This document shows, piece after piece, positions 42,399 through 52,029 of a DNA stretch of 64,000 nucleotides (positions are counted from its first letter, which is position 1; every line of letters starts with the position of its first letter). A program made the translations under genes and the position numbers. The stretch is taken from IMG/VR virus record IMGVR_UViG_3300034782_000062, positions 96,001-160,000 of that record; one strand, written 5' to 3'. This DNA comes from a virus. The notes beneath the pieces are model-generated. The model did no database searches and was not told the DNA's origin. It was given only the letters and a program-made list of their open reading frames with translations.

Positions 42399-42992
42399 AT
42401 GGCGAAGGCACGCGGATCACCATCCGCCATGCAGGTGGAGGAGTTCGAGGTGACCATCGAGGGGACGTCCCCTCTCGTGTTGTTACCTTTGGGCTTCTTC
42501 AAGGACTGTCCTGACGACGAAGACGGCCAGCTCGAACGCGCGCTCGACCTGTATCGTCGCGAGGATGGCAATCCTGGGTTCCCGGCTGGCGGGCTCAAGG
42601 ACGCGATTCTGGAGGGCTGCAAGAAGCTCGACGCGGACACTCGTTACCGAGTCGCATCCGGTTTTCACATCGTCGGGGAGAACGCCACAAATCGAGTCCT
42701 CCTCAACGGGGACTCGGAAGGAGTCGACTTCGACTTCAACTTCAAGAGACCGAAACGCACCGTAACCAGGACGCTCCCACAACTCGACAAGTGGACTTGT
42801 GTCTTTCCGGTGCAGCTCGTGACCGGGAGCCTGGACTCGAAAGAGTTCAATGAGTTCCTCGGGGTGGCCGGAGAGAAGATCGGCATCGGACATCGCCGAC
42901 CTGAGATGGGCACCTTCAAGGTCACAAACATCGTTTCCAAGAATGGAATCAACAACCGCTCAAAGCGCAAAAGCAACAACAACAAGAGGTAA
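42399..42992 (+). CDS. Cas7/RAMP-fold-like protein, short paralog
   Basis: IEGTSPL, GFPAGGLKDAI and G-rich loop AGEKIGIGHRRPEMGTFKV; GGAGG RBS. Confidence 0.7.
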   Translation: MAKARGSPSAMQVEEFEVTIEGTSPLVLLPLGFFKDCPDDEDGQLERALDLYRREDGNPGFPAGGLKDAILEGCKKLDADTRYRVASGFHIVGENATNRVLLNGDSEGVDFDFNFKRPKRTVTRTLPQLDKWTCVFPVQLVTGSLDSKEFNEFLGVAGEKIGIGHRRPEMGTFKVTNIVSKNGINNRSKRKSNNNKR

Positions 42993-42997
42993 TCGAG

Positions 42998-43738
42998 ATG
43001 CCCGCGAAGAAGAAGAAAGATGAAAAGATCAAGATTGAGCCGCTGGAGTTCGAGATCGCCGTCCTCCAGATCATCGGTACCCGGCCACTGATCGTTCACG
43101 CCTGGGACCCCAAGACCCAGGCCGAGATGTTGGCGAAGCAGATGAAGCTGCCTGTCGCCGGGGCCAAGCAGAAGGTTCGCAACCCAGACGCCGAGTACGA
43201 GGCAGCACTCTACCGCATCCCCGAGGACATGGGAGGCGGATACGGGGTGCCCGCGGCGGCGTTCAAGCAGAGCTTCGTTGACGCCTGCCGTCATGTCGAC
43301 ATCGCAATGACGATGGCCACCGGAGCCTTCCACGTTCGAGGTGTCGAGGTGGACATGCCTCCTGTCATCCTCAACGACAAGGAGGGCAACCAGATCGAGA
43401 CGGGCGACAAGTCGATGGAGATGATCCCCATCTACGGCTCGGAGCCTCGTCGCCGGATGGATATGGTTCGCCTCGAAGGTGGTAGTGCCGATATGCGGTT
43501 CAGGCCGCAGTTCGACAAGTGGTACTGCCTGGTGCCCGTCCAGATCGCCAAGGGTACGCTCACGGTTCAGCAGGTCACCGACCTGGCAAACCGCGCCGGC
43601 TTCCACTGCGGCATCTGCGAGTGGCGCCCATTCTCGAAGAAGTCGAAGAACGGCTCCTATGGGATGTTCAAGGTCGCGACGACCAAGGAGGAGCAGAAGC
43701 TCTTCAAGTCGCTGAAGCCACCAACGTTTATCCTCTGA
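42998..43738 (+). CDS. Cas7/RAMP-fold-like protein, full-length paralog (Vipr-like)
   Basis: IIGTRPLIVH, GVPAAAFKQSF, RFRPQFDKW and G-rich loop AGFHCGICEWRP..GSYGMFKV. Confidence 0.75.
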   Translation: MPAKKKKDEKIKIEPLEFEIAVLQIIGTRPLIVHAWDPKTQAEMLAKQMKLPVAGAKQKVRNPDAEYEAALYRIPEDMGGGYGVPAAAFKQSFVDACRHVDIAMTMATGAFHVRGVEVDMPPVILNDKEGNQIETGDKSMEMIPIYGSEPRRRMDMVRLEGGSADMRFRPQFDKWYCLVPVQIAKGTLTVQQVTDLANRAGFHCGICEWRPFSKKSKNGSYGMFKVATTKEEQKLFKSLKPPTFIL

Positions 43739-43770
43739 TCGAGGAAAACTGACGGGGAAGGGACGCTCTT

Positions 43771-44274
43771 ATGGCCAAAGGAAGAATCTTCAAGTGGAAA
43801 AAGGGCTCGACCTTCAAGGTTGATGCCCAGACGGCTGGGACGTTTCTCGAAAATCTGAAGGCGGAGAATGACGGAATTCTTCAGCCTGACGACGTCGTCG
43901 AGGCAGCGAAGGACCCAGAATCTCCGATTCATGACGAGTTCGAGTGGGACCTTCAGAAGGCCGCAAATAATCACTGGAAGGACCGGGCGCGCAATCTTAT
44001 GAATCACCTCGCGGTGGTTCGTGTGTACGCCGAAGATGCCAGTGAGGGCGTCTCAGCCTTCGTCAATGTCGAGGTCGCTCAGTCGACACGTGGTTACGTG
44101 GCGATGTCTCAGGTCGTCGCAAACGATGACTGGCGTCAGCAGATGGTCGATGACGTGCTCAATCGTCTGAAAGCTCTTCAGAAGAAGTATGAGCAGCTCG
44201 ACGAGCTGGATGGCGTTTGGGCCGCGATCAAAAAAGCTGAGACGCGTCGAGCGAAGGGCTCGGCAGCAGCCTGA
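43771..44274 (+). CDS. Accessory protein of the RAMP/array locus, function unknown
   Basis: LQPDDVVEAA..SPIHDEFEWD..AA..W..RAR motif; lies between the RAMP genes and the array. Confidence 0.7.
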   Translation: MAKGRIFKWKKGSTFKVDAQTAGTFLENLKAENDGILQPDDVVEAAKDPESPIHDEFEWDLQKAANNHWKDRARNLMNHLAVVRVYAEDASEGVSAFVNVEVAQSTRGYVAMSQVVANDDWRQQMVDDVLNRLKALQKKYEQLDELDGVWAAIKKAETRRAKGSAAA

Positions 44275-44321
44275 CCAGGCTGAAACGATGCTCTTTGACA
44301 ATCTGGTTTTCTGAAGCAAAA

Positions 44322-44590
44322 GGCAGCAAGCTCCTGCTTAGGCGGCGAGTGTCTTCCTGTTCTTAGGTGGGTCGGGTTTTGTCCCGCCAGCCGAGTTGGG
44401 CCACGGTTAGCCATGGACCGACTAGCTGGGTCGGGTCGCGTCTCGGCCGGCGGGTCTGTTAAGGATTTGTCTTGAAAGAGATGGTCTCGGCAGTCACGGA
44501 TAGGAATGGGACGGCCAGGGGGCGGAGCATTGGCAACGATGGCTCCGTCAAGCACCGAATAGGCAGTCACGTCGAGGCGAAAGACGTGAT
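44322..44590 (+). ncRNA. Proximal mini-array of pentamer-repeat units (~5 units)
   Basis: Delimiters GGCAG/GCCAG/GGCCG at 44322, 44386, 44445, 44489 and 44562; spacings 64, 59, 44, 73; G-led pentamers. Confidence 0.65.
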
Positions 44591-44607
44591 ACATTACATT
44601 TACTCTT

Positions 44608-44703
44608 GTAGGTGTCGGGTGCCAGTTTTTTTTTGGGCGGCATGGGGTCGTCCGATGTCATCAGTTGCTGATGAGGTAGTGGGCACTGGCACCCGCCACC
44701 TAC
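44608..44703. other. Long stem-loop separating the mini-array from the main array
   Basis: 19-bp IR with one mismatch (44608-44626/44685-44703), inner 7-bp hairpin 44658-44674, followed by TTTT. Confidence 0.7.
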
Positions 44704-44723
44704 TTTTCATTCATCTTGAGGAT

Positions 44724-47700
44724 GGCAGCCAAGCCATGTCGAGCACAGGCGGCGACGGCAACGTTCCGCACTGCGAAGGCATGGAGAGCACAGCCCTGGC
44801 AGTCATGCTAGGGAGCGCTTTGCTCAGCGTTGGCTTGCTAAGCACCGCCGTTGATCGCAACGTCGCGGCAGCCGAGTTCTGAAGTGTTGAGTGGTGCCGG
44901 GGAGGGGCGGTGCGTGTCTGCGCGCACCTTGCCTTTGTAAGCGGTGACCTGGCAGTCGTGTCGAGGCGAGAAGCGGCACGTTGGGTCTATCACAGCGTAG
45001 GCGAAGCCGGGCAGCCGTGTCGCGGATGTGTAGCCTAGGGGCGGCACGTCAGTGAGGGGATATCCCGGTCCAGGCAGCTTTGCGTTGCTGTGCATCGTCA
45101 GTCGGCGGAAGCCAACGCGATCCCACGGAACGGCAGCGATGGAGAGCAGGAGAGGGTCCACGCGGCGCAAACCGGGGTGGGCCAAGGTGCGATTGGAATG
45201 GCAGTCGAGGCGAATATCGACTACAGCCATCGCGGCTCGCCTCTACTGGTTGTGGCAAACAATGTTTTGCGACGGCCATGGTGGGGCAGCCTAGGTGAGC
45301 AGAGTGCTGGTGAGCATGGGCCAGTCGCGCTTGAGAACGTCTTGTCGCGGCAGCCGGTCAACGGTATGGGTAGGAGTGTCATTCACTGTCGCTCCCGTCA
45401 ATGCCGAGTCGAGGCAGTCGGGTCATGTTGGAGTCGGGATAGCCGGTCATAGCGGGCGCCTGCCCCGTCAGAGCAGCCGCGGAAATCATAGGATCGCACG
45501 GGGTCGGAATTTAGTGGTTCGGCAGCCGTGTCAGGGTCCGCTCTGCTTGGGATCCGAGCGCCAAGCTCAGGCGCAGATGGCCGAGGCAGCCATGTCGAGT
45601 TGGTTATGGTTGTGCAGGTCACGCTGAGTCGTGCAGCACCGAGGCAGTCGGTCAGTGCCCCGTCGATGCCGGTTACGCGATGCGTAGGTGGTGATGGGAC
45701 TGCCGAGGCAGCCGAGGACAGGACGGTCCCGCCCTGGACAGTCATAGCCAGGGGTGCTTTGTCAAGACGAGGCAGCCGAGGATGCATGGGTGCGCTGGGT
45801 CAGGTTTCGCCATTCAGGTGAGTGCGCTGTCGTGGCGTTATTACGGCAGCAGTGCCCTGTCGGGATCCGTCACACCGGGGAACTCAGGGGTAACCAGAGG
45901 TTTGCTCTGGCAGTCGGGCAATGTCAGCGTCTGCTCAGCAGCCGCTTGTCCTGCTGATGAGAGCCCAGCCCTGGCAGTCGGGCCTAGCACGGGACCGTTG
46001 AGCAATTCCATGGAGCGTCGTTGCAGGCGTTGCGGGGAGTGGTCGTCCGGTCACTCAACGCGATGGAACGCTAAGGTGTGCTGAGGCAGCGGTGCCTGGG
46101 AGCGTTGAGTCCAGCCATTATGGGCTTGGCCGAGGCAGCGGTGTTGAGGCGAGCTTGGCAGTGGCCCGTCCGGTCGAATAGATCCTTGTCGATCAGCGGC
46201 AGCCCTGCTGGGGAGTGGCCAGTCGCGTTCTGAACGCTATTGCTCGCAAAGCGTGGGTGAGGCAGCGGTGCCTCGTCGAGGTCAGCAACGCAATGGAAGG
46301 CAAAGGCCGAGAATGGACAGGATCGGCAGCGAGGTCGTGGCGATATACGGTCTGGCAGCAGTGTCTAGGTCGGTCGGGCTAGCTCAGTCATGGCCAACAA
46401 GGTCATGGTCGGGAGAGTCGAGGCCGGCATGTTTAGTCCGGCCCTTTGAGGCACAGGATTGGAAAGGTGAGGCAGTCGAGTCGAGTCGTTGTGGGGCCTT
46501 CAGGGGCAAACAACGGTGTGGCAGTCACGCGATGGTAGGTTCAGTCGCGTCCTGCTCAGCAATTCCTAGGAGAGCCTGGGGATGCAATGGCAGCTTTGCC
46601 AAGGGTGGGTGAGCACAGGCCTTCAGCGAAAAGTCGTTTCGCGTCGCGGCAGCCTGGTTGAGTTGAGGTCTCGCATGACGGTCCTTGGACCGCCGAGTCC
46701 CGACGCGGCAGCTATGCCCTGTCGTGTCATTCCCAGTCATTCAATGCAGAGGATTGGAAAGGGTGGCCGAGGCAGCAAAGCACCGGACGGGAGAGCCGTG
46801 TGACGTAAGGGGGAGCACCGCAGGTCAGAGCTAAGGTCCGGTTTGGCGAAATAAACCGACTAAGGCAGCTTTGCCGGTGTAGGCGATGGTTGTTTTTGGT
46901 GAGCTTGGTTGATCAGAGTAAGGGCAGCCGAGCAGAGGAACGTCATCGGATGCCTGGTCGTCCTAAGGACGGACGAGTCTAGGCAGCACCGCAGAGCGGG
47001 GGACAGCGATGCGGCTCAGAGCATAGCAAGGGCTAGTCGCGGCAGCCTTGCTCTGTCCAGCTCGGGCGAGTCAACTCTGCGAGAGGACCGCTCGGGCCGG
47101 GATAGCGCCGGCAGCCGGGTCACGGCCTGGATCTCCAAGCAATGGATTCGCAGTGTGGGTCCGGTTATGGCAGCAACGCACAGCGAAGGCAGGCATTGGA
47201 ATACCATGTCAGTCTTAGGTCCGCCACGATCAGGCAGTAAAGCTGGGGATTGAAGCGTCGCGGAGAATTGTGTTGCGCAATTGCGAGGCGAAAAAGCATT
47301 TGCGTTACGGCAGCGGTGCATAGGCTTGTTCAGCAAGCGCGTGCCAAGCCCGCGGGCGTCGTGGCAGCCGGGCACTGAAACGTCCAGGATCGGAGCAGCC
47401 TGCTTCCGCAGGTGGTGCCGAACCCGGTTGGGTCCTGGCAGCCGGGGATGGTTGTTCTGGGGCCAGGAGCCCCTGGTTATTCAGAACAGGGGTTTGGCAG
47501 CCGGCGTGAGCTGGGGCCAGGAGCCCCTGGTCGTCGCGAACGTTGGCCCGAAGAGGCAGCAGGGCTGAGGATGGGGGAGCTGAGGCCAGACGCCGCATGT
47601 CTTGATCTGCATAGTCACGTCCTGGCGATATCAGATGTGACTTTGCTTTGCCGAATGGGGGAGCGTGTTGGTTTGGCAGCCCTGCGTTGGGTAGGACCGG

Positions 47701-48365
47701 TTAGTCCGGGACTTCCACGTCGGGCCGCTCATTGGACTGGCCGTCGAGTTGGGCCGGGGCACAATGGACCGCAGAGTTACGTCTCGTCCCGCCAAGGCAG
47801 CCGCGGTTCGTCACCGAACTCCATGCGACAGTTTGGGAGTCCGGGGACGGCAACGGATCGGCAGCCATGTCGCCGAGGGGCTTGCGATGCAGGGCACTGC
47901 AGGGGCATTCAGGTGCGCACCCTGGCAGCGATGCTGCGGAGGGGTGGGTCATTGAATGCTGGGCACTGCCGCCGCGCTGCGGGCCGTATCCTGGATAGGC
48001 AGGCGCCCCCCGGACTGGGGAGCCTTGACCTCCAATGGCGCTCTCAGGAGAGAAACGCCGTGGCAGCCGTGCTGATCCAAGGAGCGGAGCGCTTCGGAGA
48101 GGTGGGTCCGTCATGTCCATGGATTCGCTTAGGGAAGGACCGGCAGCAGCGTCTTGGTGACGAGTGGATTGTTCTGCTCGGCCCAAGCAAACATTGTCGC
48201 GGCAGCCATGTCCAGGTCCGTCACGTTTCGTCTTGCTTCTCAAAGCAATGGGGAGAGCGGGCGGGTCGGCGCCAGGCAGCAGCGGGTTGGGGTGCACAGC
48301 CGCGCCGCTGAGGGGAGTACCTCGGAGATCTACGGATAGGCAGTCACGACCTGGCGATATAGGAG
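44724..48365 (+). ncRNA. Main non-coding pentamer-repeat array (~56 units), putative guide-RNA array
   Basis: GGCAG recurs about every 49-84 nt; 43 of 55 intervals equal 5n+4; units parse as GGCA followed by G-led pentamers; no credible ORF. Confidence 0.85.
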
Positions 48366-48399
48366 TGGCTTGAAAACATCTTGAGGATGGAGGGTTTTT

Positions 48400-48621
48400 G
48401 TGGGTAGAGGAACAACGAAAAAGGCTCTCAAACAGATCGAGAGCTTCAACAAGAAAAATCCGGTCGGAACGCCGGTGCGCTACTGGCCTGGTGTCAAGCA
48501 GGGCGCCGGTGTCGAGTCCAAGACGAGGTCCGAGGCATGGGACCTCTGCGGTAGCCCGTCGGTCATGGTCGAGGGCTACAGCGGTGGCATCGCTTTGACG
48601 CATGTCGAAGTTATGCAGTAA
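48400..48621 (+). CDS. Small phage protein
   Basis: PVGTPVRYWP..TRSEAW..VMVEGYSGGIAL; GGAGG RBS; GTG start. Confidence 0.6.
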   Translation: MGRGTTKKALKQIESFNKKNPVGTPVRYWPGVKQGAGVESKTRSEAWDLCGSPSVMVEGYSGGIALTHVEVMQ

Positions 48622-48630
48622 GACAACGAT

Positions 48631-49098
48631 ATGCCTCGAAAAAAGAAGCCAGCGATCTATCTCTCTAACTGGTCGAGCCACAGGACCAAGGGACACCACG
48701 GTCCCGGCCGAAAATTCAGCATCATGGTCCGGACATCGAGGTTTGCGAAGCCCGATGGAAAAGTTCCGGTTCTCGTCCCATTGTCGAAAGACCTGTGGGA
48801 GCTGAAAGGCGAAACCATTACGGTCGATGAGTATCGAGAGCGATACTTCAAGCACGTTCTTCAAAAAAAGGATGAGCTGGCGCCCGGAAAGCTGCTCTGG
48901 AATCCCTTTAACTTCTTTAAGGAGAAGGATCGCAAGCCTGTCGAGGACGGCGACACGCTCTGCTGCGTCTGCTCTCGCGAGCAGGCGGCAAGGGGAGAGT
49001 GTCACCGGGTCTGGGTGGCCGTAATGCTTCAGGAAGCCGGATGGAAAGTCATCCTGGACGGAAAAGAAATTCCACCTCCAAGACCAGATTCTGGTTGA
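48631..49098 (+). CDS. DUF488-like protein
   Basis: LVPLSKDLW..DEYRERYF..TLCC..CHRVWVA pattern. Confidence 0.55.
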   Translation: MPRKKKPAIYLSNWSSHRTKGHHGPGRKFSIMVRTSRFAKPDGKVPVLVPLSKDLWELKGETITVDEYRERYFKHVLQKKDELAPGKLLWNPFNFFKEKDRKPVEDGDTLCCVCSREQAARGECHRVWVAVMLQEAGWKVILDGKEIPPPRPDSG

Positions 49099-49131
49099 CC
49101 TGCCCCCTCCCAAAAAGTAACATATGCAACC
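49095..49131 (+). promoter_or_regulatory. Promoter with overlapping palindromic operator
   Basis: TTGACC-17 nt-TAACAT; AGTAACATATGCAACC at 49116-49131, directly before the ATG at 49132. Confidence 0.65.
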
Positions 49132-49410
49132 ATGCCGAAGAACCCGCACAACTCGTTGGTTGCTCTCGATCCACCAAGAAAACATCCACCTCGCAGGTGG
49201 CGGTGTCGATATTGCGGCATCGAGGGAACCTATGACGAGGTCGAAGCCATCGAGTGCAGTTACGAATATCCACCCTGCGAATTCTGCGGACAGACGCCGA
49301 CCTGCGCGCTTGACTGTCCAGGCATTGCTTTGGCGCTCTCGGGAGCGTTGACACCCGAGGTCGACCTTCACGTCGTTGGCTCGGTCGATCCGGAGGGCGA
49401 GACAAACTGA
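49132..49410 (+). CDS. Small zinc-binding protein
   Basis: CRYC, CEFC and further cysteines. Confidence 0.6.
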   Translation: MPKNPHNSLVALDPPRKHPPRRWRCRYCGIEGTYDEVEAIECSYEYPPCEFCGQTPTCALDCPGIALALSGALTPEVDLHVVGSVDPEGETN

Positions 49411-49417
49411 GGGGGAG

Positions 49418-50839
49418 ATGTCCAGGAAGAAAAAAAAGAAGAAGCGCGTGACGGGAGTGCCCAAGCGCACCAAGAAGCCCGACCACGTCTTCCCGATGAA
49501 GCTGGATATTCCCGACGACATTATCGAGGAGCTGGGTCCAGATCGGGAGCTTGGTGTTCACCTGGTTCGTGAAAAGGGCGAGCTACGAATGAAGCCAAAT
49601 CCTGAGGATGAAGACATCTGGGAGAAGCTTCTTCGGCACAAAGATTTCGACGTCAGCAGCCTCGTCGTCGATGAGAGCCAAATTACCCTTGTTGACAAGG
49701 TCACGGGCGAGCCCATCAAGGCTTCTCCCGGCCGAGCGGCTGTCGACTCGTGCATGTTCCTGATGAGCTGGCTGCGCAAGAATTCGCAGACAGAGATGAG
49801 GCACGTCAATCACGACAAGGAGTGGTTCGATCTGCTTGCTCACTGGCGGGCGCTGTGGGCTACCATGCAGCTCGCTCGTGTCATAGAATTCCCGCTCTCG
49901 TCATGGTGGCGTCTTGAGGAGCAGCTCGAAGCCACGCTCTGGACGCCCTTCGTCAAACAGGAAGGTGAAGACGCTTTCCATTCCTATCTCCAAACGTTCT
50001 ATCGGCGCCCAGAGTGCGTGCCACCGGAAAAGGTGCCGTTCAATGTTATGTGGATCGGTATTGAGCGTGGCGTCGACATGAAACGACACGACTCGACGTG
50101 GCTCAAGCGCATCTATCAAGAAAAGGTCTTCCACGACGTCGAAGACGATATCATTCTGCTGGGCTACCACGTTCAGTACAACAGCCCCGATAAATATGAC
50201 GAGAGATCAGCGTCGTTCATTATCCAGGAGCTGTACTACATCGAGAAGAACGGCAAGGTCGCGATCATCCCGAAGGTATTCATCTACAACTTTGCCGAGA
50301 AGCGATGGAACATCACGGAGGACGGTCCAGGGATGCTCATCGTCCAGATGATCATCGACATCATCAATGATCACAAGCGCTTTATCGTCGAGAAGGGGAA
50401 GGGTAAGAAGTCCCAGAAGGCTCTTCGCAAGGCGAGCAAGAAGGCAGGGAGCATTGGCTACGTGCCGGCACCCTACTACGTCGTTCGTCTGAAGGATGAA
50501 TTGGTCGAGGACATAGCTCGCGACGAGCATGGCTCCCGGCCTCGGTTCCTGAGCCACCGCTACGACCGTCGTGGTCACGAACGTTGTTACGTTCGTCGCG
50601 GGCCACTTCCGCTCGACCCGGAGCTGTACGCGAAGCTTCAGAAGGCCGGATACAAGATCTTCACGACGGCTGACCCGGACGCCGAGACCTATCGTCGGCT
50701 GATGCGCCGGCAGATGAAGCCCAAGTCTCACGATGAATGGCTGGCGATCCTGACGAAGTGGATCGAGGCGACGGTCTGCGGCGATGAGTCACTGCCCTAC
50801 GTGCCAGCGGTGCGAGTACCGACCAAGCTGGCCGGATAG
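49418..50839 (+). CDS. Hypothetical phage protein with C-terminal RRGHER motif
   Basis: GGGGGAG RBS; basic N-terminus; HRYDRRGHER..WIE tail. Confidence 0.65.
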   Translation: MSRKKKKKKRVTGVPKRTKKPDHVFPMKLDIPDDIIEELGPDRELGVHLVREKGELRMKPNPEDEDIWEKLLRHKDFDVSSLVVDESQITLVDKVTGEPIKASPGRAAVDSCMFLMSWLRKNSQTEMRHVNHDKEWFDLLAHWRALWATMQLARVIEFPLSSWWRLEEQLEATLWTPFVKQEGEDAFHSYLQTFYRRPECVPPEKVPFNVMWIGIERGVDMKRHDSTWLKRIYQEKVFHDVEDDIILLGYHVQYNSPDKYDERSASFIIQELYYIEKNGKVAIIPKVFIYNFAEKRWNITEDGPGMLIVQMIIDIINDHKRFIVEKGKGKKSQKALRKASKKAGSIGYVPAPYYVVRLKDELVEDIARDEHGSRPRFLSHRYDRRGHERCYVRRGPLPLDPELYAKLQKAGYKIFTTADPDAETYRRLMRRQMKPKSHDEWLAILTKWIEATVCGDESLPYVPAVRVPTKLAG

Positions 50840-50848
50840 AGAGGTTCG

Positions 50849-51382
50849 ATGCCCGCGTTGTGCTACGGAGCACCTCCGTTCAATTGTCCCGGCACCAGCG
50901 ATGACGACCACTGCCCGAAGTGCGGCCAGTGTCGTCATCATGTTCTTGTCGGAGGCGGAGACTCGCTCGTCAAGGCGTTCATCGACGGGCTGTACATGCG
51001 CGATCCCAGCTCGATGGACCCGGAGAACTTCGGGAACCGCGAGTACAAGGGTGCCTGCGAGGAGTGCGGCCGACCGATCTACTCTGGGTGGATGAAGGTC
51101 TACCTCGATGATGAACGCGAGGCACCAGAGGGCTGGTTCAGGGTGCACTGGCCCGAGGAGGCGATTGTTCTGCTTGAGCGGGGGCTCGTTGCGCACATCA
51201 GCCTCGATCATGACTTGGGAGACGACGAACACGGTACCGGGTATGACGTGATCCTCTGGTTGGAGGAGGCTGTCGCGACCCGCGGTTTCGAGCCTCCAGA
51301 GATATCGATTCACACGGCGAATCCGTCGGCTCGAAAGCGTATGGAGGCTGGAGCTGAGAGGATTCGGAGGTTGGCAGAATGA
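50849..51382 (+). CDS. Cyclic-phosphate-processing receiver-like domain (cREC) with N-terminal zinc-binding region
   Basis: MKVYLDDERE..ISLDHDLG..GTGYDV..W.E..HTANP. Confidence 0.75.
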   Translation: MPALCYGAPPFNCPGTSDDDHCPKCGQCRHHVLVGGGDSLVKAFIDGLYMRDPSSMDPENFGNREYKGACEECGRPIYSGWMKVYLDDEREAPEGWFRVHWPEEAIVLLERGLVAHISLDHDLGDDEHGTGYDVILWLEEAVATRGFEPPEISIHTANPSARKRMEAGAERIRRLAE

Positions 51383-52029
51383 AGGACTACCCTTCGATTC
51401 CATACATAGCCGACGGCCTCCCTTCTGGCGAGTTTTGGTACGTCTTCGATAAGCTCGACGGCTCGAATATCCGGGCCGAGTGGAGCCGTAAGAAAAAAGG
51501 TGGCAAGGCGACATGGCGCTTCGGTCGTCGCCACGGACTGCTCGACGACACCAACGAGTTTTTACCCGAGGCTCAGGATCTGATCCGTAAACAGTGCTGC
51601 GGCATCCTGGAGAAGCTGTTCTGGGACCGCATGTGGGAGCGCGCCACGGCATTTTTCGAGTTCCGAGGCGAAAACTCCTTCGCCGGTCATCATCAGAACG
51701 AGGAGCATACGGTCACGCTGATCGACGTAGCCGTCTACAAGAAGGGGTTGCTGGAACCCGGCAAGCTCATCAAGATGTTCGGTGACCTGCCATTGCCCGG
51801 AATACTGTTTCGTGGCCAGCTCGACGAGGACGATGAGCGAGAGCTTATCGAACGCATTCACGCGGACGAACTCGAAGGGGTCACCTCCGAGGGCGTCGTC
51901 TTCAAGTCGGCCCGCTTCGAGCGCAAGCTGGGCCACCCGCTGATGTTCAAGGTCAAGACTGAGGCGTGGAAGCAGCGACTCAAAGAGTTCGTCGGTGGCG
52001 ATGAGTATAAGTTCAAGAAGCTGCTCTGA
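51379..52029 (+). CDS. RNA ligase-like nucleotidyltransferase
   Basis: DKLDGSN (KxDG motif I), FFEF (III), EGVVFK (IV), FKVK (V). Confidence 0.75.
   Translation: MKDYPSIPYIADGLPSGEFWYVFDKLDGSNIRAEWSRKKKGGKATWRFGRRHGLLDDTNEFLPEAQDLIRKQCCGILEKLFWDRMWERATAFFEFRGENSFAGHHQNEEHTVTLIDVAVYKKGLLEPGKLIKMFGDLPLPGILFRGQLDEDDERELIERIHADELEGVTSEGVVFKSARFERKLGHPLMFKVKTEAWKQRLKEFVGGDEYKFKKLL

Follow-up and report, generated by a model that had tools for sequence, protein, structure and literature searches.

A probable staggered VIPR guide-RNA array with a loosened pentamer repeat in an uncultivated 183-kb phage

A 64,000-nucleotide (nt) stretch of the IMG/VR virus record IMGVR_UViG_3300034782_000062 (positions 96,001 to 160,000 of that record; hereafter the window) carries a long array of period-5 units that is very probably the guide-RNA (vrRNA) array of a VIPR (Viral Interference Programmable Repeat) system, with about 55 guides, a loosened repeat and the published VIPR code, in an uncultivated phage with a 183-kb genome. 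According to the preprint that described it in 2026, VIPR is an RNA-guided DNA silencer related to CRISPR (clustered regularly interspaced short palindromic repeats), in which Vipr, a minimal RAMP protein, polymerises along a vrRNA of 9-16 GGY/NN repeats, with one protomer on each pentamer; DNA is recognised through pairing with the NN bases, and every third base of the target is skipped (bioRxiv 10.64898/2026.04.26.720920). Our assignment draws on the homology and fold of a Vipr protein encoded beside the array, the linkage of gene and array across phages, the grammar of the array, selection on pentamer positions 4-5, and in-frame targets; the steps from transcription and processing to filament assembly and silencing are taken from work on the type II VIPR of the Escherichia phage SUSP1, for which a cryo-electron microscopy structure is available (10.64898/2026.04.26.720927; PDB 36pp).

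Structure and grammar of the array

The main array (44,724-48,343, + strand; about 54 delimiters) was delineated by spacing, autocorrelation and composition. Between 44,322 and 48,339 the motif GGCAG occurs 58 times, a density of 14 per kb versus 1.5 per kb elsewhere in the window, and 38 of the 57 raw intervals equal 4 modulo 5, chiefly 59, 64, 69 and 74 (binomial p = 2.9e-14 for an expectation of 0.2). Curation of the main array, in which two intra-unit GGCAG were removed and one long interval was cut at a one-mismatch variant, left 54 delimiters, with 41 of the 53 intervals following the 5n+4 rule and 12 breaking it. The first-pass annotation, made from the letters alone, had counted 56 delimiters and 43 of 55 such intervals, and the recount leaves its conclusion unchanged. 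The grammar that it proposed, a GGCA delimiter followed by n pentamers of the form G-B-N-N-N in units of 5n+4, is correct and is that of the published staggered vrRNA arrays.

Autocorrelation, a check that the same annotation had called for, yielded base identities of 0.32-0.34 at lags 5, 10, 15 and 20 versus about 0.25 at other lags. The lag-5 excess is restricted to 44,001-48,500 of the window, and across the whole 182,770-bp genome it occurs only in that stretch. A whole-region Fourier test at period 5 returned no signal from the array, to which it is blind because every unit moves the phase by 4. Period-3 signal is absent from the array stretch, which is therefore not coding.

Among 35 clean units, G occupies pentamer position 1 in 78% of cases, position 2 is A in 4% and G in 32%, position 3 is G in 10% and a pyrimidine in about 61%, and positions 4-5 are close to even in composition, giving the consensus G-B-H-N-N and bearing out the earlier description of a first base that is mostly G, a second that is rarely A, and free positions 4-5. 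Position 2 of the first pentamer after the delimiter is C or T in 97% of cases; the first-pass annotation had remarked that this pentamer usually begins with GC or GT. Each main-array unit comprises 9-16 variable pentamers and a terminal GGCAG, and the units directly adjoin, with no 3' tail between guides. Judged from its sequence, the array is a staggered VIPR vrRNA array with a predicted processing site at which neighbouring guides would overlap by 1 nt; this sharing of one G would account for the unit length of 5n+4.

A short run of units lies upstream (44,322-44,600, + strand), recognised by GGCAG anchors at 44,322, 44,489 and 44,562 and by a lag-5 signal that begins at about 44,000-44,500. 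Rfam and tRNA scans of the window gave no match, phages in GenBank showed no DNA similarity to the array, and Tandem Repeats Finder reported no repeat array, and hence no repeat-spacer array, in 43,000-50,000. Similarity from guide to guide inside the array is at chance level, and growth by duplication is not claimed.

The Vipr effector and its proposed operon

Three intact genes precede the array in the same orientation (+ strand), in the order short RAMP paralog of Vipr (42,399-42,992; 197 amino acids (aa); phrog_4652, E = 1.9e-11), vipr (42,998-43,738; 246 aa) and putative vap-like accessory gene (43,771-44,274; 167 aa; phrog_15946, E = 1.5e-18). No convincing Pfam match was obtained for any of the three, and none at all for the vap-like gene, whose AlphaFold2 (AF2) model is poor (predicted local distance difference test score, pLDDT, 62.6). 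The 246-aa protein was identified as a Cas7-like effector by its profile match to SUSP1 Vipr and by its modelled RAMP fold. Its family profile matches the PDB entry 36pp_D, 'SUSP1 Vipr protein', with E = 2.8e-12 over residues 26-218, and the single-sequence comparison of the two proteins is weak (E = 0.039). The AF2 model has a pLDDT of 88.8, and its top PDB matches in Foldseek are all Cas7, Csm3 or type VII RAMPs. In the alignment with SUSP1 Vipr, the G-loop CGICEWRP corresponds to CGVGDWRP, and the thumb Arg-Pro aligns as well.

The 246-aa and 197-aa genes both match phrog_4652 and are the only two genes of the 182,770-bp genome to do so. The paralog shares 25% identity with the Vipr family, lacks the PLIVHAW...KQM segment and has GIGHRRP in place of the Vipr GICEWRP. 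Cas1 was not found in the 183-kb genome by searches in which the positive controls worked.

Related loci in other phages

A tblastn search with the 246-aa protein recovered homologs in Mycobacterium phages (Saal), Gordonia phages (Ecliptus), Cyanophage Cy-LDV1 and a Pseudomonas phage. Beside the homologs of Saal, Ecliptus and Cy-LDV1 lie about 250 nt of strict GGCNN pentamers interrupted by 4-nt GGCA steps, the Saal unit being GGCA plus 11 pentamers, or 59 nt. Close relatives of the protein (67-94% identity) are found on contigs of metagenomic phages, the longest of them 290 kb, which share one layout: short paralog, vipr, vap-like gene, and finally a period-5 array several kilobases long in which GGCAG delimiters are spaced at 5n+4. 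The preferred unit length depends on the lineage, from 49/54 to 59/64.

A period-5 stretch was present beside every relative checked that had enough flanking sequence (Saal, Ecliptus, Cy-LDV1 and loci L004-L012, L013-L015 and L017-L019), and GGCA delimiters occurred in every array examined among them. The 5n+4 rule holds in four lineages, the same relaxed pentamer grammar recurs in four related phage arrays, and distant loci retain the GGCA delimiter on other scaffolds. A homolog of phrog_15946 adjoins vipr in most clade loci checked, including Saal, Ecliptus and Cy-LDV1; the short paralog is a separate gene only in the large-phage clade (the window and L004-L012).

Some of these loci have features of their own. 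The distant Vipr locus at L015:8170-8740 has GGANN pentamers with GGCA delimiters, position 3 being a purine, and in Cyanophage Cy-LDV1 the period-5 stretch between vipr and vap is accompanied by another one, located downstream of the vap-like gene (L002:6201-6500). In two loci of the large-phage clade an AcrVA2-like gene (PF26125) and a tyrosine integrase lie a few kb upstream of the VIPR operon (L004:3789-5036, L010:3382-4005).

Selection on pentamer positions

Divergence per pentamer position was computed on BLAST-aligned array segments. Between the window and L009 it amounts to 0.10, 0.19, 0.25, 0.10 and 0.11 at positions 1 to 5 (Fisher p = 3e-7 for positions 2-3 versus positions 4-5, L009 counts), and between the window and the pooled L004 and L010 to 0.18, 0.30, 0.47, 0.05 and 0.07. 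Orthologous guides keep 86-100% of their position-4/5 dinucleotides while their scaffold triplets are rewritten; the guide at 47,114, for example, is identical to its L004 ortholog at 24 of 24 position-4/5 bases but differs from it in the scaffold triplets of 8 of 12 pentamers. Positions 4-5 are thus under strong purifying selection and positions 2-3 are nearly free, which argues for a relaxed scaffold and against both extra information bases and decay. The first-pass annotation had offered all three of these readings, and only relaxed scaffold recognition is supported.

Natural targets predicted for the guides

The guides were read as positions 4-5 with a one-base skip, and IMG/VR was scanned for exact matches to seeds that specify 18 bases in nine dinucleotides; in total, nine guides were tested by collection scans. 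The guide at 44,955-45,014 (+ strand; positions 4-5 = GT GA GA GC AC GG TA CA TA GA CG) has as its in silico target the P63C-domain motif VDEATGYQY(D/E)R. Its seed matched at least 101 viral contigs and, among the matches listed, all are in-frame VDEATGYQY, with 41 matching the full-length guide at 22/22 positions and 55 at 21/22. The target genes encode P63C-domain proteins (PF10546 / phrog_2384), and the orthologs of this guide in L009 and L004 keep 96-100% of its dinucleotides.

All guides were also translated to degenerate peptides, and SNF2 motif I was predicted from this translation for the guide at 46,475-46,524 (+ strand; positions 4-5 = GA GA GT GG CT GG AA AC GT) before its scan. The seed matched 60 viral contigs, 59 of them with in-frame D[DE]VGLGKTV, in agreement with the SNF2 helicase motif I target D(D/E)VGLGKTV, and two sampled open reading frames (ORFs) carry the PF00176 SNF2-rel_dom domain. 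Three pentamers of this guide lack G at position 1, and register with the target is still held. For both guides, the wobble bases vary freely among the matches and the register set by the shared G places the first dinucleotide on the first target codon. The terminal AG of GGCAG is unmatched in the targets, so that GGCAG is a constant handle outside the address of the guide. Both identified targets are found in viral and proviral contigs. The gapped target search against controls that the first-pass annotation had proposed succeeded under a single pattern, in which positions 4-5 are read with a one-base skip; the code so recovered is not new, having already been published for VIPR.

Equal-sized seeds of five other guides matched 0, 1, 1, 0 and 0 viral contigs. 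No viral match was found for the guides at 45,647, 44,728 and 45,849, the last of which is P-loop-like. The guide at 47,114 gave one out-of-frame viral match, three chance-like matches in bacterial genomes and none in metagenomes, and that at 46,593 gave a single in-frame viral match (FNCDHLANKA, L122:955-983) indistinguishable from chance; the contig carrying it has 64% GC, and a true target and a chance match are both possible. The Xre-type helix-turn-helix-like guide at 47,367 had no match in bacterial genomes, and the guide at 45,353 had none in metagenomes. The phage's own genome contains neither SNF2 motif I nor the P63C motif.

The adjacent guides at 47,864 and 47,928 (47,864-48,001), the sole neighbouring pair with raised dinucleotide similarity, translate to the glycine-zipper-like strings IAG.IGLG.GAL and IAGGIIGLAAGVLY. 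This suggests that the pair may be aimed at a membrane protein.

Alternative explanations

The variable composition of positions 2 and 3 might be taken to indicate that the code differs and that each pentamer carries three or four information bases (positions 3-5 or 2-5). We regard this as very improbable, given that the rate of change at positions 2-3 is two to nine times that at positions 4-5 in orthologous guides and that position 3 equals the skipped target base only at the chance level (25% among 49 and 33% among 57 distinct target strings). The depletion of A at position 2 and of G at position 3 is, moreover, strand-asymmetric, as for protein contact and not for pairing. The array could also be an old VIPR array in decay, no longer functional, whose degenerate scaffold is the product of drift, as would be consistent with the roughly one-fifth of pentamers without G at position 1 and with the 12 of 53 intervals that are off 5n+4. 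This is the least probable of the alternatives: positions 4-5 are 93-95% conserved where scaffold positions have diverged by 30-47%, the same relaxed composition is seen in four lineages, the vipr, paralog and vap-like genes remain intact, and intact guides perfectly match live genes, including the one with three non-G pentamers.

A working VIPR array might instead be directed mainly at chromosomal genes of the host (for example SNF2-type or defence genes) or at the timing of the phage's own genes. Most guides are without an identified target, and SNF2 motif I occurs in bacterial proteins also. We nevertheless consider this possibility unlikely, since self-targets did not exceed shuffled controls at any skip from 0 to 3, whether in the genome of the phage itself or in the loci of its relatives, both identified targets lie in viral and proviral contigs, and two scans of 185,579 species genomes with two other guides yielded nothing convincing.

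Several observations weigh against the assignment to VIPR with guides aimed at other mobile elements. Clear targets were obtained for only two of the nine guides scanned, in scans whose exact seeds would let mismatched targets escape, and scans of bacterial genomes and metagenomes with three conserved guides gave nothing convincing. Comparison of all 183 guides from the window and its relatives with five whole SNF2-bearing proviruses showed no convergence and no single competitor. Finally, the residues that hold G2 in SUSP1 (thumb Arg, G-loop Trp) are apparently kept in the 246-aa protein, which leaves the relaxed position 2 structurally unexplained.

Proposed mechanism

With the array read as a VIPR array, and by analogy with SUSP1, it would presumably be transcribed and then processed to about 55 guides, each 50-85 nt long. 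A guide would be a run of pentamers ending in the constant GGCAG, the last G of which would double as the first base of the next guide. Vipr is expected to assemble into a filament with one protomer per pentamer, gripping positions 1-3 (here only G, not-A, not-G) and displaying positions 4-5, and the displayed dinucleotides would pair with DNA, passing over one target base in three. Where the base passed over is the codon wobble, a guide would effectively read an amino-acid motif. On this scheme the guides may be directed against other mobile elements and would silence genes of theirs, for example those for P63C-domain proteins and SNF2 helicases.

More tentatively, the large-phage clade (the window and L004-L012) might represent a distinct VIPR subtype, in which the short RAMP paralog, without the residues that hold G1 and G2 in SUSP1, works with a scaffold-tolerant Vipr, and in which the freeing of positions 2-3 permits a multi-kilobase library of about 55 guides, each guide reading a conserved amino-acid motif (SNF2 motif I or the P63C motif, for instance) and not the sequence of a single rival. 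We consider this possible, though doubtful; if it were true, the array would act as an innate silencing panel of broad spectrum, directed at entire gene families of competing mobile elements.

Flanking elements and neighbouring genes

Between the short run and the main array lies a stable stem-loop (44,608-44,703, + strand; RNA fold of -57.9 kcal/mol, z = -5.8), which none of 200 shuffled sequences matched in folding stability and whose loop region contains a T9 run. The structure might serve in termination or processing, or as a leader element. Two identical copies of a 14-bp direct repeat, CATCTTGAGGATGG, read from the sequence, flank the main array on the + strand; the left copy is at 44,712-44,725 and the right copy, at 48,377-48,390, lies just ahead of the next ORF (GTG at 48,400) and provides the ribosome-binding region of that ORF.

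Further downstream lies a module of two genes at 50,849-52,029, the first with a cyclic-phosphate-processing receiver domain (PF20274, E = 2.6e-27) and the second for an RNA ligase-like protein (phrog_548; PF09414 just under the cut-off). From these domain matches, the module looks like a putative RNA repair pair.

Implications

These results amount to neither a new code nor a new class of system. What they add is evidence from both evolution and targets for the canonical code under a very loose scaffold, two named targets, and the two-RAMP architecture of the clade. They provide sequence-level evidence that the two-base, one-skip code also operates in staggered, tail-less arrays, which the discovery paper leaves without experimental confirmation. 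They also indicate that the scaffold triplet can loosen far while the information bases stay selected, which bears on guide design for VIPR-based tools. The named natural targets, SNF2 motif I and the P63C motif, suggest that a guide can be directed at a protein motif that many rival elements have in common.

Comparison with known systems

The system resembles the backbones of class 1 CRISPR effectors (Cas7, Csm3, Cmr4) in its RAMP fold and in a predicted filament on a guide RNA with periodic base flipping. Those backbones, however, follow a period of 6 in which five contiguous bases pair, and they come with repeat-spacer arrays and an adaptation module; none of these features is found here.

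With the type II VIPR of SUSP1 it shares a homologous effector, a predicted one protomer per pentamer, informative positions 4-5 and a one-base wobble skip. The guides of SUSP1 number four, are about 100 nt long, keep strictly to a GGY scaffold and end in a 3' tail that contains a pseudoknot, whereas the array described here has no tail, a G-B-H scaffold and guides that abut with a shared G, and so falls outside type II. Non-canonical VIPR pentamers have been reported with the forms GAC/NN, CAC/NN, WGT/NN and TGH/NN (bioRxiv 10.64898/2026.10.21.760802). Like the array in the window, those loci combine Vipr-like genes with adjacent period-5 arrays whose trinucleotide departs from GGY. Their motifs are fixed or degenerate at one position, whereas here the looseness extends to two of the three scaffold positions, and only about 80% of pentamers have G at position 1.

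For staggered arrays, the discovery preprint states that vrRNAs overlap by 1 nt (fig. S18 legend) and that these arrays are not confirmed by RNA sequencing; types II, III and V are the only ones for which it reports natural targets, and it also lists the alternative consensus forms NNNGG, YNNNG and NNNNG (bioRxiv 10.64898/2026.04.26.720920). Unlike the staggered VIPR systems published there, the window has about 55 guides, a constant GGCAG terminal pentamer and a second, short RAMP paralog, paralogs being absent from the text of that preprint. The likeness to the staggered systems lies in a Vipr RAMP gene with a putative accessory gene and tandem pentamer guides of 9-16 repeats that overlap by 1 nt. 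As in published VIPR more generally, the system is phage-borne, without Cas1/Cas2 and relaxed in its consensus, and G-B-H-N-N fits the 'related consensus' described for VIPR.

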